Below, piece after piece: positions 7,602 through 60,932 of a stretch of 64,000 nt of DNA (positions are counted from its first letter, which is position 1; every line of letters starts with the position of its first letter). Made by a program: the position numbers and the translations under genes. The DNA lies in assembly GCA_051294905.1 (NCBI GenBank), contig CM119371.1:23624001-23688000 (forward strand), read 5' to 3'. Under the pieces are notes generated by a model. It was not told the origin of the DNA, did not search any database, and saw only the letters and a program-made list of their open reading frames with translations. Source of the DNA: Botryllus schlosseri (taxonomy: Eukaryota).

Positions 7602-7904
7602 GTAAGTTGTAGTAGGAAATTACTCATTTATACGCTTCAAGACTAATGGGTTGTACGATGACAGTAGCTCCAAGACTTTTGATTGTCGCATCCCAAATAA
7701 CGATTGGTTAATGCCCCGTGGCTCACACCTCGATTTGTGAACTGATTGAAAAAGATGAGTAGTTAAGCCCAAAATAAAGTGAAAATGTCTGCACTGTCAC
7801 CCAGGCATACTTAAAGGCCTACTCGGAAAGATGATACCTTGAAAAAATATATTCGCGAGGCACAGGTTGGCAACCACTTGCTGTATACTCGAAGACCTAC
7901 GTAC

Positions 7905-15500: not shown

Positions 15501-16270
15501 GTCATTCACTCGAGTAAGGATTTTCGAGCGTGAATAGGGGATGACAGAAGAGTAACCCAAAACGCCGTTACACTCAGCGAACAATTGTCGCGGTGCGAGC
15601 TACTCAATGCGATGTCAGCAGGACCCCAGGGTATTTATGTTGGAGACAAATTACTGATTTGATACGCGATTTCCAATTTGTAATCATCTGTTTCGTAAAT
15701 TCATTCTTGATGTCTGCTTGATACTCTAGTATTCCCGGATTATCGCTCACTGTGACTTGTAAATGTGCAATGTGCATACTGCATAGTTTAATTCGTTATG
15801 GGCATGGTGCAATGTGCGTGGCACGGTGTTTAATTCGATTATTCGATTCGTTTCAATGGGAAAATATTATATTCCGATAAACTTGATCGACACCCGGTGG
15901 ACTGGTAACGAGTGCACCAATATCGAACGTCAAACCATTGGCCATTTGGTAGAAATCGAATTTTTATTGATGAGGTCGTGATCTCCGCCCATATTGCTCT
16001 TACTACAGTTACAGTTCAATAATAATCGCTTATTCAAAGATTGAATTGAGCTGTATGGCTTAATGTTAACGAGTGCAGTGCCAGTGTTAAAACGCCGCAT
16101 CAGAATTTTCATACCGTACACAGCAATGGCATGAAGTAAAGTGAGTTCTGGAGCAACTATGATGTTATCGACAATTGACAAGTATTCATTATGACGTCAC
16201 AAGCCGACACGGCGGCACCTATGTCTTCGTTGCTGCATCCGATGTTACTGACGGCTGACAGACTCTAGAT

Positions 16271-17528: not shown

Positions 17529-17582
17529 CTCTAGATTACTATAGATAACTAACATGCGGGTAAATTAGTAATCTATATAGAC

Positions 17583-20649: not shown

Positions 20650-21989
20650 AGATCAGCTGTTTCGACTTATCGTTACTCTATTCAGATTCGTGGCAAGCCC
20701 TAGTTGTAGTAGTACCGTACTAAATAGTATAAATAGCGATTTACAAGACATCAAACTACTTTCAAATGTCGACACGATCAAAATATGGAGACTTGCGGAA
20801 TGTCGTAGTTGTATGCTTTTAAACAGAGATAAGGAAAGCAATCATTTTCAGCACTCAATTAAAAATATTTGTAGCGTCAGTATTCTAGTACAAGTAAGAG
20901 TAACGCAATGTATTTCTACTCGGGTTCAAGCACTCAAGCAGCTATATACACGGCTTATCAAAACTATTTTAAGTAAAGTAGAAGTTCTGGAAAGTACTGA
21001 AGTATGTACTTGAGGTGTTTCAACAATTTAATTTGATTGACGGGTCGCATACTCCGTATCACAACGTCAGAAGCTCCCCGCACTCGAGTAGACATGGTAG
21101 TATCGTCATAAATTCACAAGACATGTCACAATTAATGCATGAGGAAATAGAAATTTCATGTGCTATGTCAGCAGAGTGGCTCTACAAATGATTTGCTGAC
21201 ATTGTTGTATATGTTTCAGGCAAAACAAAGAACAAGAAGAAAACTGTTGTTGCGACCAAGTTTTTTGCGAATACGCGCTCGCGCTCTTAACATGATGCGG
21301 TGCAAATGATCCATTGTTTTATAATATGCAATGTAAATGATTACTTATGATTGCTCCATGCTTTTCCCTGTTTTAGCTGTATTAGTTGTATTAGCATTTG
21401 TACTTTTTCAAAGTCATGTGACACGTTTATTTCTAATTTCATGATGCACTTCAATTGAAATGTTTGTAATGGTATTTTAAAATTGACTTAGAACTTGCTG
21501 TTATATACAAAATCCCACTGACACATTTATTCGTAGTGATTTCCTGATCGATTTTTCACGTAAGCCTGAACTTTTTTAACAAGTAATAGTTCATTAGTTA
21601 ATGTTGTACTTGTATTTTGCAATTGTCGTTTTTCAGTAAGCCAATATAAACAGTTCGTTAGTTTATATGATGTTGAATTCCATTTAATTGCACCAGGTCT
21701 GAAGGGGAGTCCTGATATGATAATCCTGAGGAATAGAACAGGTGGTAAATGACATATCCATAGGGAGTCACGTCACGTCCACAGTAGGTCTGACGCATCC
21801 ATAGGGAGTCACGTCACGTTCACAGCAGGTCCAATGAGTCCATATGGAGTCACTTCACGTCCATTGTAGACGAACTCAGGAAGTGTTTAGGACGCTTCTA
21901 GTAGTCGACAAATCCACTCCAGGGAAGTAACGCTGGGCGCCCTGCGGCTATTCCGCAGGAAGTCAACTGGAAATCGAGTGTTTGCTGGG
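20650..21989. mobile_element. Remnant of a CMC/EnSpm-like element; right end CCCAGCAAACAC on the minus strand, left boundary unresolved
   Basis: GTGTTTGCTGGG terminus at 21978-21989 coincides exactly with the loss of Gypsy pol homology. Subterminal ACGT-containing 41-bp repeats are present. A decayed plus-strand peptide STNDLLTLLY/VSGKTKNKKKTVVATKF resembles DUF4806-type accessory ORFs. Confidence 0.4.
21756..21863. repeat. 41-bp tandem repeat, about 2.6 units (CCATAGGGAGTCACGTCACGT core)
   Basis: Core starts at 21758, 21799 and 21840. Confidence 0.9.
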
Positions 21990-24713
21990 ATGATATTCGG
22001 TAAATAGTTTCCTACGCAACGACATGGGCATAACAATTTGAAAAGTTGAATCACAGCCGGGATTAACTTGCAAATATTCACGATACAAAACACCATTACG
22101 CAAAGATAAAAACTTCCAATGAGAACACAAGACTCTGACCATGTGAGAATGCAGTAGCAACTCTTCGGAAGAAGGTTTACCACTGGCAGATTCCTTCAAT
22201 GATATTACCGTCCCAATGTCCGAGTCGACCATCTGCAAATCGCGCAACTCTTCATTGGACAAAGTATGCAACCAGTTAGGCGCAGGCGAAGGTCGATCAA
22301 CAGAGTTTGTAACGGAGTCGGTGCCCGCACTAACGGGAGCAACAATTGCATGACAAACAGAATCATGTTCATTACAGTTCAGACATTCTGCACGGCTACA
22401 CTTCCTTCTGTAACGCCGAGACAACCCATCAGCATTTCCATGCTCTTTTCCTTCTCGATGCTCAACATCATATTCAAAGCTACTCAGGTACGTTATCCAT
22501 CGAGCAACAACCCCGCTCGGGTCTTTGAAATTTAGAAGCCAACGCAACGAGGAATGGTCAGTACGTAACACAAATTTCCTCCCATATAGATAGTGGCGAA
22601 AATGCTCCATCGCCCACCGAACAGCGAATAGCTCTCTGTATGTCGCGCAATAGTTCTTCTGCTCCTTGCTTAACGCTTTACTGGCATATCCAATCACTTT
22701 CTCTTCACCATCTTGCAATTGAGACAACACGGCTCCGGCAGCAAACCCGCTGCAATCAGTGTCCAAAATAAACGTACCACCATCCCGTTGAGGATATGAT
22801 AAAATCGGAGTCGAGGTAAGGACTTTTTTCAACTCATCAAAAGCAGCCTGACATTTGTCCGTCCAAGTGAACTTCACACCTTTTCTCATCAGGTCCGTCA
22901 ATGGACTGGCAATAGAAGCGAATGAAGGAACAAATTTACGATAATATGTTGCGGTCCCAAGGAAGCTTTGCAACTCCTTCAGTTTTGTAGGGACTGGCCA
23001 GTCTCGTACCACAGCAGTCTTATTTTCGTCACACTTTACACCATCAGCTGATATAACATGACCCAAGTATTCGACTTGGCGACGAAACAGTTTACATTTC
23101 TTCGGCTTGAACTTCATCCCAGCACGACGTATCCGTGAAAAGACGCCACGGAGATTTTCCAATTCACAATCAAAATCATTACTATAAACCATTACATCGT
23201 CCACAAAAACAAGTGTAGTTTTCCACAAAACGTCTCGAAGAATATTCTCCATCAAGCGTTCGAAAAGGGCCGGAGAATTTGACATACCCATAGGCAGAAC
23301 TTTGAATTGATAGTGATTTCGACCAGGCAAGGAAAACGCGGTTTTATAGCGATCTGCTTCCTCTATTTCCACTTGAAAAAATCCACTATCCAAGTCTAAA
23401 CAACTGAACCAAGATGCTCCACCCAATGAATCCAGTATATCGTCAATCCTGGGCAGGCTGTACGCATCCTTCACAGTAACAGAGTTCAGTTGGCGATAGT
23501 CCAAAACGAGGCGATGTGAAACACCATCCTTCTTGGGTGTCAAAATCAATGGGGCATTATAAGGAGAATTCGATTCTTCAATCACATCTTGCTCAAGCAA
23601 TTTGTCAATTTCTTTGTTTGCAGCGTCCCACTTCGCCCAGCCAAGCCTACGAGGAGGTATTTTCACAGGTTCCAATTTAGTAGTCTGGATGCGGTGCTTA
23701 ATGGCATCAGTTCGACCAAGCTTTCCACCTGGTACCGTAAATACATCTTGAAACTCACGTAACAGTTCTTCAACTTTTACCCTCTGATCGACAGTTATAT
23801 CCTCAATATCATCAAGCATGGCCTGCAATGACCCAGGTAACGGTGTAAGTACTCCACCAGAACTCTCCTCGAAAACCTCTGTAGGTATGGATTCTTCATT
23901 CACGTTTTTCATCATTTTCTCATCGCCAGTAATTGAAGAGACCATTTGCACGGAACCACTATCATCGGGACGCATCAGGGCAATCAAGCAGGAGTCAGGA
24001 ATAACAACATCCTCTTCTGATAAATTCGCCAATAACAATGGCACTTTTGCGCAATCCGGGTTCACAATACCAGAAGAAAGAAACACACCTCGAGCACCAA
24101 ATTCAGAAACAAAAGAGCCAACTGGGTCAACCACAGCTGTCGCATTACAGTCATTTTCAGTCCAAGGACAAAAAATACTGCCCCAAATCAATTTCTCACT
24201 CCTTTTCGGTATCACGTATGATTGTTGAGTACTAATACGACAACATACAATCTTTCGATTGGGCTTAACAATGGGCACCATTTTGCCAGCAACACTTATA
24301 CACTCGTCTCTCGCGTACAATACTACATCAAAATCACGAAGAGCATCAAGGCCCAAAATACCAACAGGAGTGCCGAGTTTAGCAACGTTAACAGCCATTT
24401 CTTTACACACATCATTAATACAAAGCTTCAAGCACAATCTACCAACAACGTCTAGCTTGTAGCCATTTGCCACAGTAAAGTCCCTCGTAATGGGCTCCAA
24501 CATATTCCAAGAATAACCCAAAATATCAAAAAGTTCGACGCTAATAAACGTTTCGGGACTACCACTATCAATCAAAAACTGGAAAAAATAACCATCAACA
24601 CCGATACTCGCATACCAGTTTACCTTTAAATCAAGCGCACAAATCAACTTCTCCAAGTCAGGGGCATACCAGTCAGGTGCCAATTGTTGGTCACCTATCG
24701 TCTCTCTAAAAAA
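21990..24713 (-). CDS. pol: Ty3/Gypsy Pol (aspartic protease, RT, RNase H), truncated at the start of the integrase zinc-binding domain
   Basis: Motifs LIDSGS (protease), LDLDSGFFQ, LPMGMSNSP and VFVDD (RT), LDTDCSGFAAG, YRELFA and RTDHSSL (RNase H), ending at LFTEYH. Frame is open and -1 relative to gag. Confidence 0.95.
24675..24713 (-). promoter_or_regulatory. -1 programmed ribosomal frameshift signal (U UUU UUA plus stem-loop)
   Basis: gag codons GAT TTT TTA place the heptamer at 24707-24713 in the correct phase. Hairpin AGGUG-A-CCAA/CAA/UUGG-CACCU (24675-24696) lies 10 nt downstream. Confidence 0.8.
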
Positions 24714-26245
24714 TCCTTCGGAGCAGTAGGCTGTTCGGTAAAGGTGTTCCTTTGACCAATCCCGTCATTCATATTATCGTTTGGAAGTAGTTCCCTGCAT
24801 TCATCCTCCCAGTGTCCATTATTCCTACATCGAGCACATACAGGCACACGGCAGAACTTTGCGGAGTGACCATACATTCCACAATGGTTACAATTCCCTT
24901 GAAACCGTCTTCTGTGACCGTAGCTGTCTTGCCTACGCGCTGTAGAAAATTTCAATTCCTCCATCTCCTTTGAAAACATATTCTTCAGTTGCCTCATTTC
25001 ATTTTCGTCGGCTACCATCTTTGTAAACTCAGGTTTTCCACCAGAAGTACAACCGTCACTGCATGTCTTGCCTGTCGCAATCGGGGCAATCATGGGTTTA
25101 CGTAGTACTGAGGACTTTGAAGTTTTAAGAACATCCAATACATCTGTTGCTCGGTCGACCAGGTCCCATAGCGATGCTTCTTTGTTTTCAATCGACAAGG
25201 CCAAGGCAACGCTTGCATCTCCATACCCCGTAGCAAATTGTCTTTTAGTCAAACTCTCGACTTCCATTTGGTCACGCCCAGGAAACGCCTTCCTCGCCAA
25301 CTTCTGTAGTGCGATAGCGAAATCAGCAGGAGACTCCTGAAGGTTTTTCTCACGAGCATAAAACTCACGAACATAGTCCTTCTCATGGGTTGATTTACCC
25401 AATCGTTTCTTCAGATGCGACACCAACTTGTCATAATCGCGACGATCTTCTTCTTGTAGTTCTAAAGCCAATTTCTGAGCATGGCCTTCGAGGCATACCT
25501 CTAATTGCAATGCAGCGATGCCTCTATCCCAATCATGTAGTAATACCATGGCCTTGAAATGTTGCAAGTAATCTTCAAAAGGTTCTTTACCATCACCACT
25601 GAAGTGTCTCGGTGAGGTCACACCGATCGAGTGGACAGCCAAACCATTACACTGACGAGGTGTGCTTGCCCAAGCAGACTTCCCAAAATTGCTAAACTCG
25701 GGTACCGGTACCATACCAGATGCTGAATATACTTGCTGTTTTGAAGATCTCTTCTGTTCCACTCTCACATCATTCTCTGGTCTCGGAGCACACAAGGAAG
25801 ATGAATCGACCGACTCATGTTCAGTATTTATCATTTCCTTCTTTGCAATGACCATATGAGCATTCAACAAGTCCAAAATTTGCTGGCTTTGTCCATGCAG
25901 AGCGTTCATTTCATCACGGAATTCCTCTTGATTTCCACGCATAATACGCAATTCCTGGCGCAGTTCATTGTTCTCCTCACGCAGAACATGCAATTCATGG
26001 CTCATGCGCTGGTTTTGACTGCACATCTGATTCTGATTTTCAAGCAAAGTGTTCATTTCCTGGCGCAGAATCTTCACCTCTTTCCCCGATTCAACTGCTA
26101 CGATTCTTGAACTCTCTGCATCATTTTGGACTTTTGCAAAAGTTCTCAATAACATAGTACCAGTATCAATTTCTTCGTTCTCGCCGCCTACTGCAAACGG
26201 TTCATCTCTCTCATATTCAGAGTCAAGTCCTGGCGTGCTCGCCAT
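24695..26245 (-). CDS. gag: Ty3/Gypsy Gag (coiled coil, capsid-like domain, two CCHC zinc knuckles)
   Basis: 516-aa ORF with FSGDGKEPFEDYLQHF, QESPADFAIALQKLARKAFP, CNHCGMYGHSAKFC and CARCRNNGHWEDEC. Confidence 0.95.
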   Translation of the reverse strand: MASTPGLDSEYERDEPFAVGGENEEIDTGTMLLRTFAKVQNDAESSRIVAVESGKEVKILRQEMNTLLENQNQMCSQNQRMSHELHVLREENNELRQELRIMRGNQEEFRDEMNALHGQSQQILDLLNAHMVIAKKEMINTEHESVDSSSLCAPRPENDVRVEQKRSSKQQVYSASGMVPVPEFSNFGKSAWASTPRQCNGLAVHSIGVTSPRHFSGDGKEPFEDYLQHFKAMVLLHDWDRGIAALQLEVCLEGHAQKLALELQEEDRRDYDKLVSHLKKRLGKSTHEKDYVREFYAREKNLQESPADFAIALQKLARKAFPGRDQMEVESLTKRQFATGYGDASVALALSIENKEASLWDLVDRATDVLDVLKTSKSSVLRKPMIAPIATGKTCSDGCTSGGKPEFTKMVADENEMRQLKNMFSKEMEELKFSTARRQDSYGHRRRFQGNCNHCGMYGHSAKFCRVPVCARCRNNGHWEDECRELLPNDNMNDGIGQRNTFTEQPTAPKDFLERR

Positions 26246-26620
26246 TGTGGCCGTTCTGTCTTTTGTTCTTCTAATAAGCTATCTACCTCACAGAAGATGA
26301 TGCCACTGTCGTTCAGGTTCGAGACTGAAATGAGAGGTTCCACCGAATGCGAATTCACAGTATGTATTGCTCAAAAGCAGCAGTCCAGTACAAAAGCCAG
26401 CGCAGCAGAATACGAATAATACTAGTTCCTCATTTTCCCGCCTGCGTGCTCTCCTAACCGGAGATCACCCAGCCTCCGGATCCGAGCGGTTACATATGGC
26501 TTTACGGCTGAATATGGCCGTAAGTCCGCTGGTTGAGCACCCCTGGCCCAATCAAAATAAGGATGAACATTTGAGCAAAGCTGCAACGTATAGGAAATGC
26601 TAAATACGAATTAGGGCTCG

Positions 26621-26986: not shown

Positions 26987-28138
26987 TAGGGCTGGGCAAA
27001 ATCGAGTACCTCAGTGATTTAATACTGAATCACGTATTAATATTACCATAGTGTCCTATATGGTGTCGACACAAGCAAATCTCACGGCTCAGTGAAATTG
27101 TATCACGTCACAATTTCCATTTGGCTGCAGGTAATTTGACGGTCATTTTTGACCGGCTTGCCGAGCATTAAATTTGGTAAAACGGGTATCAATCGAAAGC
27201 TGACTCTGCACTGATGACGAAAATATAAATTTTATTCAGCTTGCGGCCCTGGAACCCCCACAATCAGCCTCGAATTTTTCATTGTTATGGAGGTTGGCAT
27301 TGGGACGCAACAATGCTTTTTGAACCTTTTTCTCTTGAGCTACACTCTCGTTTCGCCAGACAGCATTGTTGCGTCATGAGCTTCTCTCTCGTTTGGCCAG
27401 ACAGCACTGTTGCGTCCCAATGCCAATCTCCATAACAATGAAAAATTCGAGGCTGATTGTGGGAGTTCCAGGGCCGCAAGCGGAATAAAATTTAAATTTT
27501 CGTCATCAGTGCAGAGTCAGCTTTCGATTGATACCCGTTTTACCAAATTTAATGCTCGACAAGCCGGTATAAAATGACCGTCAAATTGCCTGTAGTCAAA
27601 TGGAAATTGTGACGTGATACAATTTCACTGAGCCGTGAGATTTGCTTGTGTCGACACCATATAGGACACTATGGTATTACGCTTCGAGTCGAGCATTCAG
27701 GTATCACTCATTATGATGTCACAACAGAATGTGACCTGTCAAAGTTCAAATATGTAACTTTTATGCCACCACAAACAACATAATGCCTGCTATCCGTCAC
27801 ATTAACGATACTTTGGTGGCATTTTTTCGACCATACCGATTTCATTCCAGGTTTGACAATGTTGTGGGATGATCAGGACTTCGGAAGTGTGTGATTTCCA
27901 GTAACGTTCGTAGCTTTGTACTATGTCTCGTATGCTGCGACACGGCCAATCAAGGTTTCAAGGCATCCTCAGTTGAAAATAGTCTCGAAACTATGATCCT
28001 CGTTGATAAATTAACTTTCAGTTGCGAGGAGCGTATAATTTCAGTGCTCGAACGTATCGTCTTTTACTACTCGACTCGAATCATCAAAATTAATAGTCGA
28101 TTCAGATTTGAGTACTCGAATCATTATGCCCAGCCCTA
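26987..28138. mobile_element. hAT-type MITE, TAGGGCTGGGCA family, hosting a fold-back element
   Basis: 12-bp TIR; flanks ATCATAAT and ATTATAAT (7/8 match); homolog at 52677-60490. Confidence 0.9.
27046..27674. mobile_element. Fold-back MITE with about 270-bp inverted arms
   Basis: CCATAGTGTCCTATATGGTGTCGAC...GTCGACACCATATAGGACACTATGG, flanked by TATTA on both sides; single-arm relative at about 51498-51720. Confidence 0.9.
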
Positions 28139-36013: not shown

Positions 36014-37303
36014 TCTTCCTGTTCAACACTACAACAAACGATAGGCCTGGATTGTTTCAAAAGTGAATCAGTTACAGCAATTCAGCTATATAATTCACAT
36101 ATACCTCATAACAGTATGTTTTGTTGAAGATGATGATTTTCATGTCACTTGAGACATTGTTAAACTGTTTTTATATATTATACATATTGTACAAGCTGCT
36201 GTACTCATCTTTGGAATATTCTAGAACTTTGATAGTCAACCTCGAGTCTTCCAGTAAGAGTGATGATAACTCATTTTGAAAGTGTTCAGGTTTCTGGTGT
36301 ATCTTGGAGTTGATCATATAATAACTCTTGTATATTGGTTTCAAAACTGACTCCACCATGTGTAGTGGTTCAGGCCGCTGGCTGTATGAACAGGTCACGG
36401 TAATACACTCTGCTATGTCTGTGAATTGAACTGTCATTGTCTAGTAAAAGTACAGATTCAGAATTTCATCATGCTCGACTTACTGCAGATTGTGGTTTAT
36501 CATATGTACAAGTTATTGAAGTAATGTTAACAAAAAAAGATCCAAGACTGTTGTTGCTTGCAAGAAGTTGCATATTGGAGAAACTTTTCAAGGTGTTGAT
36601 GGTTTTCCTCCTGGAATACGCCCAACTAAAAGACAAGTCACTGAGGGTATGCTCAACTTTAATCACTTTAGTTGTGATCAAACAACTCTCTTTATCTGTC
36701 TACCAGAAGGAAAACCATCACCGCCTAGAAAAGTTTCACCACTGTGCAACTTCTTGCAAGCAACAACAGTCTTGGATCTTTTTTTGTTAACATTACTTCA
36801 ATTACTTGTACATATGATAAACCACAATCTGCTGTAAGTCGAACATGATGAAATTCTGAATCTGTACTTTTACTAGGCAATGACAGTTCAATTCACAGAC
36901 ATAGCAGAGTGTATTACAGTGACCTGTTCATACAGCCAGCGGCCTAAGACACTGCACATGGTGGAGTCAGTTTTGAAACCAATATACAAGAGTTATTATA
37001 TGATCAACTCCAAGATACACCAGAAACCGGAATACTTTCAAAATGAGTCATCATCACTCTTACTGGAAGACTCGAGGTTGACTATCAAAGTTCTAGAATA
37101 TTCCAAAGATGAGTACAGCAGCTTGTACAATATGTATAATATATAAAACAGTTTAACAATGTCTCAAGTGATATGAAAATCATCATCTTCAACAAAACAT
37201 ACAGTTATGAGGTATATATGAATTATATAGCTGAATTGCTGTAACTGATTCACTTTAAGAACAATCTAGGCCTATCGTTTGTTGTAGAGTTGAACAGAAA
37301 GAA
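36014..37303. repeat. About 1.3-kb fold-back inverted duplication (about 560-bp near-identical arms, diverged but still inverted centre)
   Basis: Mirror ORFs 36171..36437(-) and 36880..37146(+) differ at 4 of 88 aa; no TSD seen. Confidence 0.95.
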
Positions 37304-37970: not shown

Positions 37971-40619
37971 TATAGTTCAGTAAGCGGTAGTTTAAATACA
38001 AGTTACACCAGCTCTTCACATTCAACAACACCTCTGTTCAATGTACACTAGGGCTGTTCAAAAATAACCTTTTTTCCTGAATCTTGCAGGTTACTTGATT
38101 AAATCGTTAGGTTGCCTTGAAAAACGACGCACACCAAATTTGAATTCATTCCAACCAATATTCGCGGATTTCGTAGAGTTCGAAAATTTTGAATTTGCCT
38201 AGAAATGCAAAAAAATATTTTTTTCAAATTTTTCTGCCAACCCCATGAAATTGTTGCGCTGTATTCAAAAACGACGGAAAACAAATTTGACTCAATTCCA
38301 CGCTGCAGAAGCGGAGTTATTCAAGTTTTTTGATGATAATTCTGGGATGATCCACCAATCAAGGATAATTCCAGAATTATCAAAGAAAAACTGAAATAAC
38401 TCCACTTCTACGGCTTGGAATTGAGTCAAATTTGTTTTGCATCGTTTTTGAAGACAGCGCAACAATTTCATGGGGTTGGCAGAAAAATTTGAAATTTTTT
38501 TTTTTCGCATTTCTAGGCAAATTCAAAATTTTCAAACTCTACGAAATCCGCGAATATTGGTTGGAATGAATTCAAATTTGGTGTGCGTCGTTTTTTAAGG
38601 CAACCTAACGATTTAATCAAGTAACCTGCAAGATTCAGGAAAAAAGGTTATTTTTGAATAGCCCTAATGTACACAGATCAAGCCTCTCTTCAGCTGATAT
38701 AGCATATATAGATAGTTTTTTGAGAAAATTGGGACTGCAAAAACCGGCACATTACATAATCAATGGTGATATATGAAATGAATAAATAGACTTACATAAT
38801 CACATGTTTCCATGGGTTCTTGAGGCAAAAGTATGTATCACAAAAGATGACTGCACCGGTACAAAATCTGTTCAGATGACTGCTCAGTGCTCACGTCACT
38901 ATCAACATTGTCTGTTAGCAGAGGCACGGTGAAACCAGGGTTCTTTTCGAAGAGTCGACATCAGTTGGATGAATTTGAGGATCAATCTAAGACTGTTGAA
39001 AAGAAAATACTTGTTTTAAAAATTTGCAATACAAGGGAACTATTCAATATTCGAACAGCTTCTTCGAGGTACAAAACTTCAATATAAAATTGAATAGTAT
39101 ATAATATATTAATATATAGTATAATCGTCAGCAACTAGTGGAGAACTCGAAAGAACGTTGTACATCAACAATATTATCACAAAATAAGACATTACCAGCA
39201 TTCAGTATTTACTTACGCAGATATCAGACTGGATGTATTGTATGTGACAAAAGGGTGTCTTTCATAGAACAATTAATTATTGTAATGGAAAGTTGCATGT
39301 GACCTTAACACCAATTTTACTCCAGCCCGAGTACCATACTTTCCTGGATTGTTAATCCTTTTAGTGAAATTTTACCAGCAAACATTCATAAAAATAACCG
39401 AATGCAGCTGAATCAAATTCATTATCTAAGGATATACCAGTTTACTTACGAAACATGGCGATGCTTACCAGTATTTCAAACAACAAATCTTTTTCAAAAA
39501 AGTGCCATTTGCAATACATACTACCTGCACTTTAGGGCATTTTTCATATTCTTTCCATCGGTCGCAACCCAGGCTTGATGAGTCTCTGATTCGTGGCATG
39601 CCATGGCGGCTCTTTTTCTGTACTGGTCAAATCCAATTGCTGCTCCTAGAAAATACAATAAATACCAAAGGAAAATTGTAAATTTTATGCACAAGTAAAT
39701 ATAAATATTTCACACAGGTAATAGGTTACAGAAGCGCAGGAGAGGTGCTCAACCCCCCAGGTTGAGAACCACTGACCTAGTCCATTATAGTTCAGTAAGC
39801 AATAGTTAAAGTACAAGTTACACGAGCTCATTACTTTCAACTACATCCCTTTTCAGTGTTCAGAGTATACAGTTCACTGTACACTGTACAGTGTACACAG
39901 ATGAAGCCTTTTTCAGCTCATATCGAATAGTCCGTAAGCTACTCTGCGAGATAGTTCGTGAGAAAAGTAGGACTGCAAAAACCAGCAAATTACATAATCA
40001 ATGGTGATATATAAATTGAATAAATAGGCTTACATAATCACATGTATCCATGGGTTCTTGAGAAGGTCTGCATCGCATAAGATGACTGTGCTGGCACAAA
40101 ACCCGTTACGAACGACTCCTCACGTCACTGTCAACATTGTCTGATAGCGCAGGTACGGTAGACCCAGGGGGCTCTTTTTAAAGAGTAGACATCAGTTGGA
40201 CGAATTTGAGGATCAATCCAAGACTATCGAAAAGAAAATATTTGTTGCGAAAATTCGCAATACAAATGAACTGCTCAGTAATCACGCAGATATCATACTG
40301 GATACAGTTATTTTTTTCTGCAACAAGTTGTACGTGACAGAAGGGTGTCTTTAATGGAATAGAAAGTTGCACATGACGTTACCACCAATTTTACTCCGGC
40401 ACAGTTAGTATACTTTCTGAATTGTTAACAATTTCTGTGAAATTTTATCAGCAAACATTCATAAAAATCTTTATCACAAAGATAACCGATTGCAACATAA
40501 TCAAATTCATTCTCTAAGGATATACCAGTTCACTTTACAAAACACCGTGATGCTTACCAGTATTCCATACAGCAAATGCATATCAAAAAGGTGCCAAGTT
40601 CAATACATACTACCTGCAA
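37971..40619. repeat. Diverged internal direct duplication (about 37971-39530 vs 39787-40619; also about 35266-35475 vs 39555-39745)
   Basis: Shared blocks such as TATAGTTCAGTAAGC, GGACTGCAAAAACC, GAATTTGAGGATCAATC, GATGCTTACCAGTATT and TCTCTGATTCGTGGC. Confidence 0.85.
38049..38666. mobile_element. Fully palindromic hAT-type MITE
   Basis: TAGGGCTGTTCAAAAATAACC...GGTTATTTTTGAATAGCCCTA; exact TSD ATGTACAC; empty site in the duplicate near 39891; degenerate relative at about 45150-45443. Confidence 0.95.
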
Positions 40620-41466
40620 AATAGAGTTTAGTTCAGTTACCGTATCACAATAAACTCAGAAAAGTCAAATGGGGGATTGGGCAGAACAAATACTACCCCT
40701 TGTGATCCATGGTTTGTTGAAAAGATTGTTTGTTTGGCTGTGCTATTATTGGGGCGATTTTTTGGACCTAAAAAGGTAAGACTTTGAGTAAAAAATTCAA
40801 ATTCACACATATTTTGATGATGAAAAACTTAATTTTGACCCCATGTACTTAAATTAGGTGTTTCTCACATAGTGTTAGAATTGTATTACCGGAACTTATC
40901 TTTATTTCTGACTGGGGCTGTCTGTTCTTCCGAAGTAATTTGACCTGAAAAAAATCTTTTAGCATGAAAATTGACAAATTTTTACATGAAAAAGAACTTA
41001 TTTTATCGAAATCTCGACCCATGAATAATTCTAGTATTAGTTACATCTCGTATTATGGTAGAAATAATTAAAAATTTGTTGTAGTACAACGAAAGATACT
41101 TTCCTACATTTTCGGGTAGAAAGTGTCTGTCCTAACTAAGTAGCGTGGCAAGAATTAAGAAAGAACGTTCACCAGCTGCAGTTGTTGGCCGGCAACACTG
41201 AAGTTGTGCGTCCACTGCACTCTTTCTCTCATTATGACAAAGTTGTCTACATCGCAATTTTTCATCATACGGTTTCTAATAGAAAAACCAATGCCCACGC
41301 AGTCTTGCTTCAGTTAGGATAGTGCAATAGGCTATGTTGAGTATTTGTTTCATTTGACAATTTATGATTCACAATGACCAGACGATGGTCCGTCTACAAC
41401 GGTGGGACTATAAAGTGGGCTACAAGATGTAAATTGTAAAATGATAAGTTCACCGACAGTGCAATT

Positions 41467-42048
41467 ATAGAATGTAAACGTGGAATGGCAGCGACCGATT
41501 TTGCAGCCTCGTTCCGCTTCGCTGAAGCTTTACTCAGACTTATTTTACGGCAGCTACTGTAGGATTTATGGCAATCCAAAAGTCGTCTTCCAGAGCGTAG
41601 AATTACCTGAATCTGGTATTGATCGAAAGCTACTGTCACACTGACTCAGAAAATGTAAATGAAAATATGATCAGGCACTGAACCGCTTAGAATTCGCCCT
41701 TCAAGTCTGAATTATCGGCATTGTCCGAACAATCGAAGAGCCGCAATGGGTCATTGTTATGGTCATTGTTGTGCGTTCATCCGATTGTTCTGAACAATGC
41801 AAATTTTAGATGTTGAGGGTGATTTGTCATCTAAGTGCGGAGCCTGACCCTATTTTGATTGATATTTTCGGAATCCGTGCGACAGTAGCTTTCGATCAAG
41901 ACCAGATTCAGTAAATTCTGAGCTCTGGAAGACAACTTTTGGATTGTCATAAATCCTACAGTAGCTGCCGTAAAATAATGAGTAAAGCTTCAGTGAAGCG
42001 GAATGAAGCTGCAAAATCGGTCGCTGCCGTTCCACGTTTACATTCTAT
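41467..42048. mobile_element. Fold-back MITE, possibly Mutator-like
   Basis: ATAGAATGTAAACGTGGAA...TTCCACGTTTACATTCTAT, arms over 190 bp; flanks AGTGCAATT and AGTGCAATC (8/9 match). Confidence 0.85.
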
Positions 42049-42641
42049 AGTGCAATCATCTATGATACAAACGAAATGCAAGTTGCCAACAAAATTTTGA
42101 TTTTGTAAAGAATTTTGGCAATTTTTGACCTAACGGTACAATTTTGACAAAATTTTGACCTTATTTTGACATGTCAAAAAAAATCGCTTTAGTTAACACC
42201 TTACCACTTAGAATAAACAGGACAGTGTAAAATGTGTTGCAGTTGAAAAACAATGAAAACCGTTGCATGACTGTCATACCGGCATTCAATTGCTGACGTT
42301 GCAGTACTTGTCCACAATGGACCACAATATCGCCTACATAGGGATATTTCAGTGTGGATAAAGAGAACATCCCTTTATCCTTATGTCAAAAAAGTTACTT
42401 CTATAGCAGCTTCCCATCAGTACCGTAGTACTGGACCTGGTCGCAGCATGATATATTATCAGATTCGAAGCTCGATCATCCAGCAATAAGATCAGACGAA
42501 TCATATACTACAAAACATCTAAAGAACATTCATATGAATGAGCGATATCAGTAGCCTACTAAAACATCTAAAACAAACGACCTTACTGCAATGTCAAAAC
42601 GAGTTCATTTTATGACTATTCTCACATTACATATATTCAAT

Positions 42642-47227: not shown

Positions 47228-47708
47228 ATGTAATATATCCTAAATCGTTATATGTCTTGGTGCGTCGTGTCGCGGTATTGGCAAACGCCGATATGTCCAT
47301 TTCTAAAAATCTTTCGTGTTCATTTCTTGGGGGGAGAGTACCAAAAAATCATGATATTTGGCACCTTGAAATCGCGCGGAGGGCGAAAATTTTTTAAAAA
47401 GTTGCATAAATTTTCAAAAAATATTCTATAATTTATGCTAATTCACGAAATAATTTGGGGCCCCCTTCGAGCTCGGGGTGCGGCAGTTACGGTCCCGATT
47501 TTAGTATTGATACACACAGATTAGCGAGTGCACATTGAGATAATTAATACAACATACTAAATGTTGGAGGTTTATCTAGGCTACTCCTCACCATCTCATC
47601 CATGTAAGCGGTGTCTTACAGAAAGCCTATAAGTGGGCCGTTCTACAAGTCGGCAGCTATACGGAATAAAAATAAGGAATATTGGCCTGTCTTGAGATGG
47701 GGGAATGA

Positions 47709-48155
47709 GAAAATATTATATTCCGATAAACTTGATCGACACCGGATGGACTGCTCACGAGTGTACCAATATCGAACGTCAAACCATTGGCCATTTGGTA
47801 CAAATCGAATTTTTATTGATCAGGCCGTGATCTTCGCTCATATTGCTCTTACTACTGTTACAGTTGAATAATATTCGCTTATTTAAAGATGGAATTGAGC
47901 TGTATGGCTTAGTGTTAACGAGTACAGTGCCAGTGTTAAAACGGCGCATCAGAATTTTCATACCGTACACAGAAATGGCATGGAGTAAATTGCGTTCTGG
48001 TGCAACTACGATGCTGTTATGGGCAATTGACAAGTATTCACAATGACGTCACAAGCTGACATGGCGGCACCTATGCATTTGTTGCTGCATCCGATGTTAC
48101 TGACGGCTGACAGACTCTAGATTACTATAGATAACTAACCTACGGGTAAATTAGT
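47709..48155. repeat. Dispersed repeat, paralog of 15860-16270 plus 17529-17569
   Basis: Colinear sequence with matching ORF translations (15930..16181 vs 47779..48033). Confidence 0.9.
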
Positions 48156-52300: not shown

Positions 52301-53783
52301 ATAGAGTCCTGGAATGAAAAGAACCACCGATCAGGCGATCACATCTGCGTACGAGGTACGACAAAGTCAGTTTATCTTTGTGATTGCTGTATAATGGTTT
52401 GGGTAGATCTAATCTTATGTACACTATACAGAGAAACCAGGGAAATCGAGAAATTCGTGAGAGAAACATTTGGTATACTCTGCGACGAGCTTCGAGACCA
52501 TAACGAAAAGCAGCAAGCAAATTACACGAACTCAATTTCTCTTGCTTGCTGAGTAGCTGTCGCTCTTTGGCGGCTAGCCAATGAAGCCAATCGTTTATAG
52601 ATCCAGGTAAACATCAGATGTATTTTAAGAATGCAACTGTCACAAGTTGATTTTAATAAAAATTGCTGGTGCCTAGTAGGGCTAGCCACAGTGATTCGAA
52701 TACTCAAATCTGAATCGAGTATTAATTTTATTGATTCGAGGCGAGTAGTAAAATACTACTTTTCGAGCAGGCTACTGAAATTATACTGAAAGTTGATTTA
52801 CTAACGAGAATTATACCATAGTTTTGATAAACTTTACCACTGAGTAAGCCTTGAAACCTTGATTGGCCGTGTCGCAACATACGAGATATAGTACAAAGCT
52901 ACACTGTAAAAAATCTGGTAGATTTACTGGGAAATCTCTGTAAATTTTGCAACGAATGACCGGTCGCAGCCAATAACTGTGCGTAGCTTGTAATGTTACA
53001 TTTTGATATGTAATATTACCTCAATTTAGCTGTAAAGTCAAGTAACCAGAATTTCTTCGCAAAATTACTGACAGTTACTCGTTACTGAAGTTTACCAGGC
53101 TATTGGGAAAATTGATTAGCTTGAAAATCTCTGCAGCCAATTTATACGTGGAACTGAATGTTACTGATATCATTCTCGTGGTGATTTGACCTGATTCAAC
53201 CTTGTTCGCGAGACTGGGGTCTGTCATACGGAAATTGTTGGCCCTAGTACCAATTTCAGTATAGTACATAGTAGGGTAAAAGAAACAACTGGCAATCGTA
53301 GCTAATGTGGTACACCATAGCCACTATATTATATTATAAGGCTATGGCCATAATGCCGGTCTCGCTGGTTACATTCGTTGTCACGGATAGGACTGATGAG
53401 TTAGAATATCAGTTTAGGATGCATAATATTGTTCGGGAAACTAGAAATATCAGCACCGCATGCTCTGTTGACCATTTGTTAATGGCGAACAAGGCGACCT
53501 GTAATAGGTGACATTAGGTTCTGAGATTCGTAGTAAACAACCAACGCACAACTGTGACATCACAAGCATCGTCTGGTTTAGCAGGTACGGTAAGTAGTGA
53601 ACAACATATGGAATAAACATCAATTTATACGCAATTAGATGGAGAAGAAAGGGACTATATGTAATGATAAATGTTTCTGTATGAAAAAAACGACCTAAAT
53701 CAGACATTATAACGCAGTGGCCAGTAAATATTATTGGTGGCATGTCAGCGGATGAATACCGCTTATTTCGAAATCGTTCGAGT

Positions 53784-54881
53784 CAGAGATGCCACTCCTG
53801 GGTTTTTCCACCCAGATCTGGGTTTTTTGAGCGTCACCTGGGTTTCTGGGTTTTTATCCTTGAAATCTGGGTTTTTTTTCAACATCCAGTTCGCCAGGTC
53901 AGTTTTACGCTCGAAAATTAATTATTAGATTAGTATGGTCGCAATATCGTAAAATGCACGCACTTCAGTTCGCCATTGTCGATGGATTTTGCTGTTATTG
54001 TAACGACAGAGTGTTGAGAATCTATTTCACTACTAAAATGAGAGGCTTCGGCTTGATGCGATGGAGCTTCGTTTAATGGTAACTTCCAGGTCGCAGAAAG
54101 TCATGTTCATATAGAACGATTGCCAGTAGCGAACTCGGCACTTGGTGAACTTGGTGAACAATTCGGCATGTATCGATAAATATATCATGTAACTGTATGG
54201 TATGCACGCAAGCACATGAACAGACCAGGTGATGATCCGACTAATATAATCCTATTGTTATCTGAGTATATTTAGTTCCTACAGGGACACTCAGAGAGAG
54301 AGAGAGAGTTAGTTAGTTGGACACCCCTAGCAAGTTAATCAGAGGCATTGGTTATCAGCATATTCGAAACCTAACCCTAACCCTGAATTTCATGATTTGG
54401 CAGTTATTCATTTCCACTATAGATTGGTCTGTGATTATTACAAATAAAAGTGATTGTCGTCGGATCAATCAATCGAAAGCTACTTTTAAGCTGTTCAGGT
54501 CGCTGAAAATACATGAAATCATCCTTAGAAATAGGGAATGGATGGCATTGCATTGAACTTTCGCAGCGCGATGATATAATTAGTACCGGTACACTATTAA
54601 GTATTCACGCTGCGCCACAATTGTTTCATTGCAACGTGTCGAGAGGAAAACAACATGTTTTTAGTGTGATTCGCAGTGTTAACCAAGCAAAATGTGTATT
54701 ATGAACTGTTGTAAATTCAATATCGAAGGCTGCAATGACTGAATAAGTGTATGCGACGACTATCAGGCACCACTTTCACAGGTATCTCGTGTCTTTTGAG
54801 TGAAATATAGGATCTGGGTTTTTCTGGGTTTATTTCGCCTCCACATCTGGGTTTTTCCGAAATATCCCAGTGGCATCTCTG
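53784..54881. mobile_element. hAT-type MITE (CTGGGTTTTT arrays), left copy
   Basis: TIR CAGAGATGCCACT / AGTGGCATCTCTG; left flank GTTCGAGT, right flank GTATAGAT. Confidence 0.92.
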
Positions 54882-55095
54882 GTATAGATAACTAACCTAC
54901 GGATGGATACGCAACACCCGACGTCACGCTTGCTTGTCCGGAGGTAATTACTGCTCAGCAATCTGAACGCAACATAAATTGCTAAGCCCATAGCTGACGA
55001 CCCGCGCGCGGAAGAGGAGCCCAGATAAACCAACGACGGGAACCGAATCGAATCCGATCCGTCAGATTGGTGGGCGCTTATCGTAACCACTACAC

Positions 55096-56339
55096 CAGGG
55101 GTCACCAACGTGGTGCCCGCGGGCACCAGGTAGCCCGCGAGGAACAGACGAGTAGCCCGCGAGACTGTTTTAAAAACAGATCGAATAGCAGCATTTACCA
55201 ATGTTCGTCAGATTATTACCAGCGAGCTTTTAAATATATAGATTGAGATTTAGCTATTCTTGTTTAAATCACATTGTAGCTTACAAATGTCAATACATAA
55301 TTAACACTCAAAATGATGATATCAAATTTTCATCAATTACAATTAGTAATATACCAACATGTAATAGAACCACAAGATATCGAAGACGTAGGATACGGCG
55401 CACTTCCTATACAATCGACATGACGGAATGCCATCCACGGTCTTCTTGAAATGGCGGGGGGTTCCGTTATGGTAGCTCGACGTCCAGGACAATCCCAAAG
55501 TAGTAAACAACATTACTATTCGGTAGCAGATAGCGGTGAAGTACTAGCAGATTTTCAATATGTGTATGTCCATTTCGTATTGCATCTTTTGACACGGCTC
55601 ATTTCTCTTACACTCAACGCAGTTTAGTACCATATTTCTAACTTTTCGTAATCGATGCTGCTGTCAGGTATATTGAAATCTGTTATGTCTGGATGCTGAA
55701 CAGTTAAAAATTGAAATTGTAACACTGCAAAATGACCTCCACCTCAAAGCCCACAAGGCTGCAGCTAAACTTTTGGTTCCTTGTTGACTTGGAAACGTAC
55801 AGTGGCGTATGCGCAGCAGCTATGACGGCTGCAAGCGTGCTTGGTTCAACTTATCGCTGTGAATCAGCCTTTGCGGACATGAACTTAATCAAAAACAAAT
55901 ACAGAACAGAACTCACTAATGCACATCGGGAACACTCACTCAGAGTTGAAGTGTCAAGTTACATCTTACTACAGTACAGCGCACTAGTTGATTGCATGCA
56001 ATGTCAGGCCTGCCACTGACTGATATAGAAACAGATAACATGGTGTCCAGTCTAAAGTGTGACATAATTTATTTTAAAATTTGACTTGACTGTTGCTGTA
56101 TAATTTATATAGACACGGTGCGAAGTAATTCGTGGTCTTAGTGCTTAGCTGGTTGAAATGTGATGTTTTGATTTAGACTCTCGTAGGATTCTTACCGCAA
56201 TGTGATTCCTGCCCAGTGTTATGAATATCAAAGCGGAAATTCAATCTGGTACGGGTAAACGGCGGGAGTAAATGGCAGCCCGTCACTGCAATCAATACCC
56301 AAAAGTAGCCCTTGGTTGCAAAAAGGTTGGTGACCCCTG
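55096..56339 (+). mobile_element. Deleted hAT Buster/Charlie element retaining the transposase C-terminal dimerisation region
   Basis: TIR CAGGGGTCACCAAC; flanks CACTACAC and CACTACAT. Peptide at about 55690-55975: EQLKIEIVTLQNDLHLK, a frameshift, then NFWFLVD...GSTYRCESAFADMNLIKNKYRTELTNAHREHSLRV. Confidence 0.92.
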
Positions 56340-56664
56340 CACTACATTATCTCCCACGCCATCTTTTGGTGGTATGATCTGATGAAATTTTAAATAAAAC
56401 GAATGAAGCAGTATCTCAACCACTGGTGACTTTTGGGGTTGTCGACGGGCCCCCTCTTTGGTCAATCATCAACTCTCTGCATTTGTTAGAAAAGTCACAT
56501 ATCCCGATAATCATCAAGTCTTTGCATGCGGTAGAGGTAATTAGTTTTGATGTAGTCTATCCTTTCAACCGTGCAATCGTTGATATGACCTAATGCAGCG
56601 CCTGGCTCAAACCTTGACGTGGTGTGCTGGCTAATCGCTAATATCAGCCGATAGCTTACCAGAG

Positions 56665-57743
56665 CAGGGATGCCACTCCTGGGTTTTTCCACCCAGATCT
56701 GGGTTTTTCGAGCATCGCCTGGGTTTCTGGGTTTTTGTCCTTGAAATATGGGTTTTTTCAACATTATGTTCTTCAGGTCAATTTTAAGCTCGAAAATTAA
56801 ATATTAGATTAGTAAGATCATAATGTCGTAAAATGGACCTCTTTCAGTTCGCCATAGCAAGGATATATAGAACTGTAGAATTCTACAGATATCCCTCCGC
56901 CATTGTCGATAGATTTCGTTTTCATTGTAACAGCGTAACGAGTTATCGTAACGAGTCTTGAGACACTGTCTCACTCGCAAAATGAGAGGCATCGGCGTGA
57001 TGCGATGGAGCTTCATTGAAGACGGTCAATTTCCAAGTCGCAGAAAGTCATGCGATGTTCATAGGGCAACACATTGGATTTTGGAACCGTCGTATTGCTA
57101 TTTAAAACGATTTAAGAATCGAATGCTAGTATCATTCCAATGGATTTGTCATGTATCAATAAGTAACATGATAACCTTATATTATGCAGATGGGGATCTA
57201 AGTATATTAACTTCCAACAGTGACCCTCTGAGAGAGACGGTCGCACACCTTCAGCTATTGAGTTAGTCTGAGGGGTTGGGTATCAGCACATTCAAATATA
57301 CCCTGAATTTCATGATTTGGCAGTTTTTTTTTCGACTAAGCTTGCCTGTCACATTATCCCAGGAGTAATGGTCAGGTCGCTGCATGGAAATATTGAAAAT
57401 CACCCTCAGAGATGAGGAATGGCATTGTTATGAACAACATTCGTGGCACGGTGATATAATACATTGTTGATCAATGACGCCGCGCAATGCGTTGAGAGGA
57501 AAACAGCATATTTTTGTGGGATTTGTTTAGTTAACCGGGAGAAATGTATAGTATGAACTGTTGTATTTCCATAATCAAGGGCTAAAACTTACTTCTATTA
57601 CTGTATGACTGTAATAATGACTGTCAGTTTCCAGTTTTACAGCTATCTAATAGCAATTTAAGTGAAATATAGAATCTGGGTTTTTCTGGGTTTATTTAGC
57701 GTCCACATCTGGGTTTTTCCGAAATATCCCAGTGGCATCTCTG
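56665..57743. mobile_element. hAT-type MITE (CTGGGTTTTT arrays), right copy, same orientation
   Basis: TIR CAGGGATGCCACT / AGTGGCATCTCTG; left flank TACCAGAG, right flank GTTCGAGT. Confidence 0.92.
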
Positions 57744-58653
57744 GTTCGAGTGTCGTATCGTCGTCTGGCCATTATTGAGATTTGAGCAAAGGGTGGAGCG
57801 AAGCTTGTTGTGCTTGAAGAAAGTGGACACGATCGTTGAAGATTCCTAGGAATGCTGAATGGCATACGCATCGTAAAAGGTACAGTACTACATAGTATTC
57901 TTTACCGTGAATCTCTACGACTGTGCACACCACCGGGATGACTTTGATTTCATGATTGAAATATTTCATTCGCCGCATTCTCTGTTCTATTTTGGGATAT
58001 TAGTCGACTTATAAAGTGACCTGTGACACCACATACTCCGCCGCGGAGGAGTTGAAACTGTAGGTATGTTTATGTCATTTTCGGGCCATAGCATAAAGAT
58101 GTTTTCATCCACTTCTGGATTTGTTTGGCACACATCCAACTCAAATGAGGAACCTTTTGCTTCAATACATGAGGCTAAACATGTGTTTCTCAACCATTTT
58201 CAGAAGACGATTGTTGAAGATGAAAATTATTTCGTATTCAAGAAAGATCGCCAAATTCAAACTCCAGCAGCCGCGCTCAACTTCATTTGAGCAAATTTTT
58301 GATATTCTTTGAAGATTTAGAGGAATTCCCACGTGGAAGTCATTCATTACTTCATAGCTTCCCTTGCCCTTCATAGCTTGCCCTCAATTAAGCTACCCTA
58401 TATCAACACAATTTACTTCAATTCCAAAACTGATCAAATTGGGCATGGCAGTACAGAATGATGCCTTGTTCTCTGTAGTCACTTCCAGCATTAGGATTAG
58501 TCTCAGTGCAACCTACCTTGAAATAAATTGATGTCCTGCTCAATGTTTCTTTTGCTATTTTCAAACAAGTTTGGGGAAATTAGTCAGAAATGATAAAGAC
58601 TCGAATACGGATTCAAACTTGGCGTAAGACATCCCATATGTATACTAATAGAT

Positions 58654-59465
58654 CAGGGATGGGCAATCTGCTGCAGTAGAAGGGAGTTTGTGTGGCCGTC
58701 GACACCTAATTCAATTAGTATGTGTTAGCATCCGTCGACATGCAAATTGAAATTACTAATTCATCCCAATTTTTCAAGAGATTTTAATTAATCTTGAAAT
58801 TTTCTTCGCGCTCCACGCAATTCAACGTAACTAAATTTTTCAATTCTAATATAGTAGCGCCCTTCTAAATCTGAGCAGACATCAGAATCGTGTGCTCACG
58901 AAAGAAATTTTTCTATGGTACATTTGGGCGATTTCAATATATTTCCACTACTGATACGATGGACAATCCTGATGGGGGGTCAACAAATAACAGCATGCGA
59001 CAAAGTGCATGACTAATAACAATTGGCCCACACAAAGATACATTATCAATTATAACTTGCCCTAAATTTTCGAAAGCACTCCGTCCATGAACCCTACCGG
59101 TGAATCTGATGATATGGGCTGAAAAAGGATAAATATTTGACAGTAATATGTAATACTGCTACTATTACTTAAGGTATTCATTCGTGAATCTAAAAAAAAT
59201 TCGCGCTCCGCTCTGCACGAAAATATGGAATCCCAGCAACTACTCATAGCATTGCCACTCGCGATTTCGGTGTGTACAATAGCCCTTTGTGAAAAGTATA
59301 ATGGTCCAGAGTTCACCGGGAAAGGATATGGACATTGGACAGATTAACATAGCCTATCTCTATATTAGATGATGTGCTCTTTTTGACATGACAATAAGTG
59401 CAGGGGGCGCAATTTTTTTGGCCATCGCCAAGGGGGCGCATGTTCAAAAAGGTTGAGAACCGCTG
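58654..59465. mobile_element. Degenerate hAT-type MITE
   Basis: CAGGGATGGGCAA...GGTTGAGAACCGCTG; flanks TAATAGAT and CATTAGAT (6/8 match). Confidence 0.4.
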
Positions 59466-60932
59466 CATTAGATGAAGTAAGTCATGACTCATGCTATATC
59501 ATGTAAAAGGCGGAGCCGTCATCACACAATGTACCAGTACCGGTACTTCAAAAATTGTGATATTTTTGTTAGCCTATTTGTCTTAGTAGTCTTTATAATG
59601 TCATGTCTAGGCTATAAACTTTGCTTAATATATCAACTTATGCATGAATTCTTTTTAGTGGAACTGCAAGATACTAGTTACACAGAAGGAATGAGGACGA
59701 GAAAAAGAAACAATTGGAAGTTTGTCCGATGGTGGGAGACCACCCGTTTTACTGCATGTCTCCTAAAGAAGAATTAGACCTCCAGCAGCAATACTTTTCC
59801 ATCGATAACCTTCTCATCGTGAATCATGAATGAATATACAGTTTGTTCCAATGTCGTTTTGGGGGTGTGAAGAAGCTTTTGCGATATTTTAGCATCGGGT
59901 TGCTTTGCGATAGGTATGGGGTGTACGTTAATTTACAAGCTGATATGTAATCCTGATTTACACAGACAGCATGTAGGTTGGTAGGCGGTAGAATTACAGT
60001 CTCAGGGGCAAATATACAGGAGAAAATGTAGATTGGATATACCGGAGGTGACTGTAACATTACAGTCTGGCGTGTAAAGTGAGATTACCGGACGAGTGTA
60101 AGTTAAATTTACATTGACTAGCGGTAATGTTACATTACCACGAAATGTCTGGCTACCGTGCTTCCAAACATTTCGCGGTAAATCGAGGTATTTTTTTTTA
60201 CAGTGTACGAACGTTGCTGGAAATAACACATTTCCGAAGTCATGACCATCCCATAAATAACACTGTCAAGCAGTGCAATGAAAACGGTATGGTCGAAAAC
60301 ACATTAAAGTATCTTTAATGTGACGGGCAATAGGCGTTATGTTCTTTATGGTGGCATAAAAGGTAGCCTACACATTTGAATTTTTGGCATGGTACATTGT
60401 GTTGTGATGTCATCATGATGATACTCGACTCGAAGCGCAATAAGTGATTCAGAATCGAATCACTCAGGTACTCAATTTTGCCCAGCCGTAGTGCATAGTA
60501 ATATTTCTATATTTGTCATGGCAGAATGTCAGCCAGTTTTTGCGTAGCATACCACTGCAAAAAGGTCAGACAAATTTGGTCTTGAATCATTATGTCAGAA
60601 AAAGAAGTCTGAAAGACCAATTGTTCTTGCCAAGTAGGCTACTTTCTGTCTCAAAAGTAAGACCCAAATTGATGGAAAATAGACTTAAACTGGAAACTGA
60701 GCAATCAACACAATGACTTGGACTCAAGTCATAAAACCATGACTCGAACTCGACGCTCTGCTCGATGAGTTGGACTCGGATTTGACTCGGTGATAAATTG
60801 AAAATGACTCGACTTGAATCTAGTCAAAACTATTGAAGTGGGATCGACTTGTGACTTGGTTACAACCCTGCTCACTTGACTGAAATTGCGGAAAATGAGA
60901 CCAAATTTGTATATTTTTTGTAGTGTAGTCAG

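Follow-up and report, generated by a model that had tools for sequence, protein, structure and literature searches.

Two transposable elements and the DNA between them form a 3.96-kb block (positions 53,784 to 57,743) in a stretch of 64,000 nucleotides of the Botryllus schlosseri genome, here called the window (GCA_051294905.1, contig CM119371.1, positions 23,624,001 to 23,688,000 of the forward strand). [quoted passage not shown] A first-pass annotation of the window had proposed that the unit moved as one piece. We find that other copies of the element hosting the block have the site empty, with a single copy of the target sequence, and that the MITE interiors give no sign of chimerism at the sites compared; entry of the block as a unit is therefore supported, with its outer ends standing where a hAT transposase would put them.

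The 8-mer GTTCGAGT is found on the plus strand of the window only at two sites, directly outside the terminal inverted repeats (TIRs) at the two outer ends of the block (Table 1). The chance of such an 8/8 match is 2e-5 for this one pairing and 8e-5 for any of the four left/right pairings. The inner flanks of the MITEs match the outer 8-mer at 3/8 and 1/8 positions and each other at 3/8, which bears out the earlier claim that the duplication is shared at the outer ends alone. The outer ends thus have one target-site duplication (TSD) in common, and neither boundary MITE has a TSD of its own.

The block lies within a multi-copy element with CACTG ends, and the first-pass annotation had suggested a search for the empty GTTCGAGT site in other copies of this host. 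Contigs of 4 of 15 sequencing runs (X1, X11, X12 and X5) were mapped on 53100-58400 at 88% likeness. The contig evidence reported here is that of the 32 contig pieces and 15 joints listed, the remainder comprising 45,582 pieces, 369 joints and 3073 loose ends; the bar for a joint was at least 31 letters on its shorter side, and depth was read as repeat versus non-repeat only, never as copy number. The empty-site joint, 53775 to 57744, was found in all four runs. It skips 3968 bases (3960 + 8) and keeps one GTTCGAGT, whose eight letters fit either side. The contigs that carry it number 2, 1, 1 and 1, with depths of 39.9, 2240, 48.3 and 7.85, and the shorter side measures 29, 27, 36 and 37 letters in the four runs, two of which pass the bar. 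A variant joint, 53783 to 57766, reflecting a host variant, was present in three of the four runs, and loose ends behind 53783 run on into the right flank of the host in the two organism-A runs (20 contigs in X1 and 3 in X11). The outer flanks are contiguous in this empty state. The host normally has one GTTCGAGT here, and the 8-mer is therefore the true target duplication bracketing the whole 3.96-kb block. Because the host is high-copy, the empty-site contigs are probably paralogous host copies rather than an orthologous allele.

Table 1. Position and properties of the block, its parts and associated features in the window
Feature	Position	Strand	Remarks
Host element, multi-copy, CACTG-ended	52902..60205	+	TA on both sides; both flanks at high depth in run contigs
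Left TSD copy, GTTCGAGT	53776..53783	+	Abuts left TIR of copy 1; single copy at empty site
MITE copy 1, hAT-type, non-autonomous	53784..54881	+	1098 bp; supplies outer left end
Left cargo, GC-richer	54882..55087	+	52% GC; opens with copy 1 inner flank GTATAGAT, the end of a high-copy dispersed repeat
Left duplication of nested element, CACTACAC	55088..55095	+	
Nested complete non-autonomous Buster-type hAT element	55096..56339	+	1244 bp; both TIRs
Transposase C-terminal remnant in nested element (weak)	55723..56016	+	Pfam PF05699, E=0.044, 14 bits, below the 21.4 cut-off
Right duplication of nested element, CACTACAT	56340..56347	+	
Right cargo	56348..56664	+	Right half a high-copy repeat (depth bin 56463-56639); ends in TACCAGAG
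MITE copy 2, hAT-type	56665..57743	+	1079 bp; same family as copy 1, different subfamily; supplies outer right end
Right TSD copy, GTTCGAGT	57744..57751	+	Abuts right TIR of copy 2; single copy at empty site
In-window reference for copy 1 inner-flank motif	48126..48145	+	20/20 against 54883-54902; other upstream sequence, no MITE

The two MITEs lie in the same orientation with all four ends intact, and the earlier description of two diverged copies with complete TIRs was exact in its coordinates. They are 72% identical over 992 ungapped columns. The first alignment block is 93% and the last 97% alike, those between range from 33-88%, and overall the ends are 94-96% alike over ~90 bp and the interiors ~70%. 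The longest identical stretch is 42 bp and forms the last 42 bp of both copies. The TIRs are 13 bp long and pair at 13/13 positions in copy 1, at 12/13 in copy 2 and at 13/13 between the left end of copy 1 and the right end of copy 2, which make up the outer pair. The termini read CAG..CTG, and the subterminal motif CTGGGTTT occurs five times on the left and three times on the right of copy 1, and four and three times, respectively, in copy 2. With reference to the definition of hAT elements in PMC3942097, which includes an 8-bp TSD, the elements have the features of hAT MITEs: an 8-bp TSD, TIRs inside the 10-25 bp range, and conserved ends with subterminal repeats in non-coding, multi-copy sequence. 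No stop-to-stop frame of 120 aa lies within either copy, and MITE depth is far above that of single contigs, indicating many copies in a qualitative sense only. One X11 contig (993 bp) has a copy-2-like right end and departs from the window sequence just beyond it; both flanks of a solo copy appeared in none of the records listed. The MITE end motif had no match among metagenome and viral contigs, collections that are not expected to include the source animal. Presumably the MITE ends resemble those of Blackjack-type hATs.

Chimeric MITEs, which had been named beforehand as a sign of ectopic recombination, were looked for and not seen in the interiors. The recombination test used 20 MITE sites, among 40 of 567 variant rows, with letters private to one copy. 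At none of the 20 does the partner copy share the private letter, and at 12 of the 15 ungapped sites it has the family letter. Interior depth in X1 runs at 8.7-11.0k along the whole of copy 1 and at 0.26-1.5k along the whole of copy 2, and no switch appears in either. Exchange between the MITE interiors is unsupported, and the 42-bp identical run would offer little for homologous recombination. Three joints between the copies (53878 to 56767, 54012 to 56996 and 54662 to 57542) were considered as a solo-MITE allele and rejected, having 22-25 letters on the shorter side; two of them also have other letters between. These three joints fit further MITE subfamilies.

The cargo of 1783 bp comprises the nested Buster-type element (1244 bp), 8 bp of its duplication and 531 bp of other DNA. 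In 72 X1 contigs and 57 X5 contigs the match to its left part starts at 54883, behind upstream letters that vary (agreement 0.38-0.39). Besides the reference copy in Table 1, the window holds a second copy of the inner-flank motif at 17540-17559 (18/20), likewise with other upstream sequence and no MITE. The inner flank of copy 1 is the end of an unrelated dispersed repeat, which would be expected had copy 1 first entered the genome at another locus. The inner flank of copy 2 had no match to the host within the window, and both inner flanks are foreign to the insertion site. Relative to the left host flank, depth in the four runs is 0.7, 3.3, 5.4 and 16.8x for bin 54870-55046 and 0.7, 1.9, 3.1 and 1.7x for bin 56463-56639, and the presence of a separate repeat is indicated by a loose end at 56465. 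The cargo is a patchwork of at least two high-copy repeats. The left stretch, previously described as GC-richer and unique, is GC-richer but not unique, being a high-copy repeat in the run contigs. The 15 joints listed do not include the one from 55095 to 56348 that a Buster-free cargo would give, and the cargo in its entirety therefore does not resemble an amplified element. In X11, a contig of 194 bp reads across from the nested element into the right cargo with three differences at a depth of 83 (the other X11 records listed range over 36-158), which suggests that the block arrangement, or its donor, exists as a low-copy sequence in another sample.

Neither the open frames nor Pfam pointed to a gene in the cargo. 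The sole stop-to-stop frame of at least 120 aa in the block, a 125-aa frame at 54833-55207, was rejected as a gene, as it crosses three elements and Pfam gave no hit for it up to E=1. The cargo was also considered as one element with inverted ends, and this was rejected with no inverted copy of the cargo start found within 4 mismatches in the window. The left-cargo motif had no match in metagenome, prokaryote-genome or viral contigs, where the source animal is not expected. The 20-bp motif of the cargo start is carried at the end of a repeat family at 47704-48155 and at 15855-16270 plus 17529-17569, in which a short hairpin appears possible by eye; nested elements interrupt one copy of this family at a CTCTAGAT duplication. 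Other relatives of the cargo-start repeat diverge after 54917.

The Buster piece in the cargo had been regarded as a remnant and is instead a complete nested non-autonomous element with both ends. Its duplications, CACTACAC and CACTACAT, match at 7/8 positions with a central TA, as in the Buster target consensus nnnTAnnn (PMC3517528). About 157 bp at 56050-56213 are absent from many of its relatives (joints in 4/4 runs), and the nested copy therefore belongs to a longer variant.

One transposase event very probably used the ends of two different MITEs, whether by macrotransposition or by composite insertion. The best reading, which we consider probable, is macrotransposition from a donor in which copy 1 preceded the cargo and copy 2 followed it. 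At a different locus, two same-orientation MITEs of different subfamilies would have occupied separate target sites ~0.5-1.8 kb from one another. Acting in trans, a hAT transposase would have brought together copy 1's left end and copy 2's right end, bypassing the two inner ends, and the block would have been excised and inserted into one copy of the CACTG element with duplication of GTTCGAGT. The inner flanks would then be orphan halves of the two original duplications. The action of a transposase, the order of the donor, an unbroken cargo and the timing of the Buster-type insertion relative to the move are inferred. In Hermes, the hAT transposase assembles on the left end through subterminal repeats and then captures a nearby right end (PMC10368747); conserved tips would therefore suffice across subfamilies. 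It may be, speculatively, that flaws in the left end of copy 2 (the TIR mismatch, one motif fewer and the extra pentamer described below) favoured the outer end.

Several observations weigh against macrotransposition. Neither a donor locus nor a second full copy was seen among the listed contigs of the four runs; with a cargo made up largely of repeats, and a donor that may be lost through cut-and-paste, a donor search would be less telling. The 32 contig pieces listed include none that bridges one of the four MITE junctions, and the filled allele therefore rests on the assembly. The empty-site joint has fewer than 31 letters (27-29) on its shorter side in both organism-A runs, whereas the runs that pass come from a marine metagenome and from organism D. 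Copy 1 and copy 2 contrast clearly in depth only in X1, with a one-bin overlap in X11, a weak contrast in X12 and a reversed one in X5, and a crossover within the terminal 90 bp, where the copies are nearly identical, would leave no trace. The inner flanks are also odd. The sequence TACCAGAG (56657-56664) is the exact reverse complement of CTCTGGTA (54877-54884), which straddles the right end of copy 1, and plain macrotransposition does not predict this mirror. The inner 8-mer of copy 1 starts with G where both repeat copies in the window and the loose-end consensus have C (7/8), and this G at 54882 is also the first letter of the outer duplication.

A match of the TACCAGAG type to any 8-mer near the four ends is found for ~0.3% of the 8-mers in the window (185/63,677), a figure obtained post hoc. 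The last five letters of TACCAGAG equal the first five of the TIR, and the left tip of copy 2 thus has an extra TIR-like pentamer. The simplest readings of the mirror are a 5-bp terminal duplication, the true copy 2 flank being TAGCTTAC, or a donor insertion into the tip of a third family member. These oddities leave the outer geometry unchanged. They do alter what is expected at the donor, namely GTATAGAT or CTATAGAT to the left of a copy-1-type end, or TACCAGAG or TAGCTTAC to the right of a copy-2-type end.

A composite insertion would give the identical end state of TSD, element, flank, junction, flank, element and TSD (PMC4270019), and we consider it an unlikely origin of the block. It combines reversed-ends transposition with re-replication: copy 2 would lie upstream of copy 1 in the donor, their facing ends would insert into an unreplicated target, both elements and flank would be re-copied and the broken forks joined, making the cargo two unrelated flanks fused. 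The patchwork of repeats in the cargo suits this account, as does the lack of a Buster-free joint among the 15 listed, so that the cargo need not have been continuous. Such patchwork is nevertheless normal for the window, and an internal repair junction could not be located. The account needs two extra steps, fork breakage and repair, and in PMC9910405 and PMC4270019 it is shown for maize Ac/fAc only. It is similarly improbable that an earlier solo MITE made the GTTCGAGT duplication and that a circle, or a template switch during gap repair, added the rest by recombination with crossovers in the ends. This would leave the TSD unaltered, as modelled for KolobokP circles (PMC9587614), and gap filling explains most single-copy animal Pack-TIRs (PMC8277862). 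The likeness of the MITE ends over ~90 bp speaks for it, as does the G at 54882, which would equal the first letter of the outer duplication by chance in about 1 of 3 cases. The interiors speak against it, with no chimerism at 20 of 20 sites, no switch in X1 depth, and ~70% likeness with a longest identical run of 42 bp between the copies. Moreover, a donor with both inner junctions would still be needed, which adds events and saves none.

The mirror of TACCAGAG and CTCTGGTA points to another arrangement, in which the MITEs were joined as an abutting dimer through a short palindrome, the right tip of copy 1 being mirrored before copy 2, and the cargo entered the centre later. Other copies of the left-cargo repeat match from the TA at 54883 onward, as this would have it. 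The cargo does not act as one mobile unit, however, given its lack of inverted ends, the absence of a listed Buster-free joint and the separate repeat at 56465, and a 5-bp terminal duplication or an insertion into a third member's tip, together with a putative GT..AC-like target preference, is simpler; we hold the dimer to be very improbable. Misassembly of this repeat-rich region seems more remote still. In its favour, the block is built of repeats throughout, the share of sampled words in the best run is 0.53, and the listed pieces include none across a MITE junction. Other host copies nonetheless have a single 8-mer at this site, where an assembly error would not create a perfect 8-bp duplication directly outside both outer TIRs, the copies are too diverged to collapse, and the junction between nested element and right cargo is present in the 194-bp X11 contig.

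Natural macrotransposition has been documented mainly in maize and the mechanism itself is known; Ac/Ds macrotransposons were reportedly described by Huang and Dooner in 2008 and by Wang et al. in 2022. Tam3L at maize White Cap is a natural macrotransposon defined by the same criteria (10.1101/082677), and like Tam3L the block has boundary elements without a duplication of their own, a shared outer duplication and contiguous outer flanks. It further resembles the maize hAT macrotransposons (Tam3L, Ac/Ds) in consisting of two elements of one hAT family with a shared outer 8-bp duplication. Unlike them, it has an animal host, ~1.1-kb non-coding MITEs from subfamilies 72% alike, a 4-kb unit and a gene-less repeat cargo, and no donor locus has been identified. 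Ac macrotransposons and composite insertions are described in PMC9910405, PMC4270019 and PMC3260210. The final layout and 8-bp TSD of the block are also those of Ac/fAc composite insertions, which can move on as macrotransposons (PMC4270019, PMC9910405). Such insertions require facing ends at the donor as well as a repair junction inside the unit.

Among animal systems, KolobokP likewise has an internal region between two TIR-bearing direct repeats with a TSD outside only, and solo repeats exist (PMC9587614). That system is a stable lineage with RR..YY ends, a 3-5 bp TSD and an internal DDD/E transposase and His-Me nuclease. None of these is found in the block, which has CAG..CTG ends, an 8-bp TSD and diverged repeats and is non-coding; identity with KolobokP was rejected, and the block looks like a one-off, unlike the KolobokP lineage. 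In Anopheles gambiae, the MITE AgaP2-P12 has ends from different subfamilies, and macrotransposition was proposed for it (PMC1562414). That element belongs to the P superfamily, has lost its inner ends and has a hypothesised origin, whereas the block keeps four ends and is the predicted intermediate. Animal Pack-TIRs are TIR elements with host DNA and are mostly single-copy (PMC8277862); they capture DNA inside one element by template switching, whereas here two complete elements bracket the cargo, and identity with a Pack-TIR was rejected on the four complete ends in place of one pair. By title, the macrotransposition literature mostly concerns plants, with Anopheles P MITEs, Teratorn and Galileo as animal exceptions among the matches listed. 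Animal cases of macrotransposition in the literature are few, and titles and main texts cannot prove absence. Drosophila transposons flanked by foldback elements are an older animal precedent, which our literature search did not confirm.

The block is a clean natural animal case: the four ends all survive, the empty site is confirmed, and the two subfamilies joined are ~28% apart. On the best reading, conserved tips would suffice for the pairing of ends across subfamilies, and the block represents the intermediate that had been no more than a hypothesis for the chimeric Anopheles MITE. The locus itself is probably without effect, because its cargo has no gene. The signature of a shared outer duplication can be counted genome-wide and would tell how often animal MITE pairs move host DNA. 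A tentative extension, which we regard as possible, is that the block is one of many and that transposases in the source animal routinely pair the ends of neighbouring diverged, non-coding MITEs and carry along the DNA in between, in some cases through composite insertions by re-replication. If true, MITE pairs would be a general route for shuffling DNA, exons included, and orphan and shared duplications would allow its frequency to be counted.

The window is repeat-rich animal DNA, and the CACTG host is in turn inserted in an older repeat, of which an unbroken copy lies at 27675-28138. Coding continuity of the host across the empty site was considered and rejected: the frames are all stop-ridden, and Pfam returned no match for the host fragments. 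A second hAT-like non-autonomous element is nested in the same CACTG host at 58654-59465, with a 6/8 duplication and a central TA. Near ~58170 of the host, loose ends in X11 and X5 start with hAT-like termini, which suggests further insertions in other host copies. Elsewhere in the window, an open frame of 298 aa at 6716-7612 (plus strand) had no convincing match in Pfam (best E=0.29). Two long open frames of 527 and 933 aa lie at 21963-26278 on the minus strand, which, judged by their motifs, resemble gag and pol of a long terminal repeat (LTR) retrotransposon. Four largely palindromic elements, 80-91% self-complementary, are located at 27041-27679, 36014-37302, 38042-38673 and 41466-42049.

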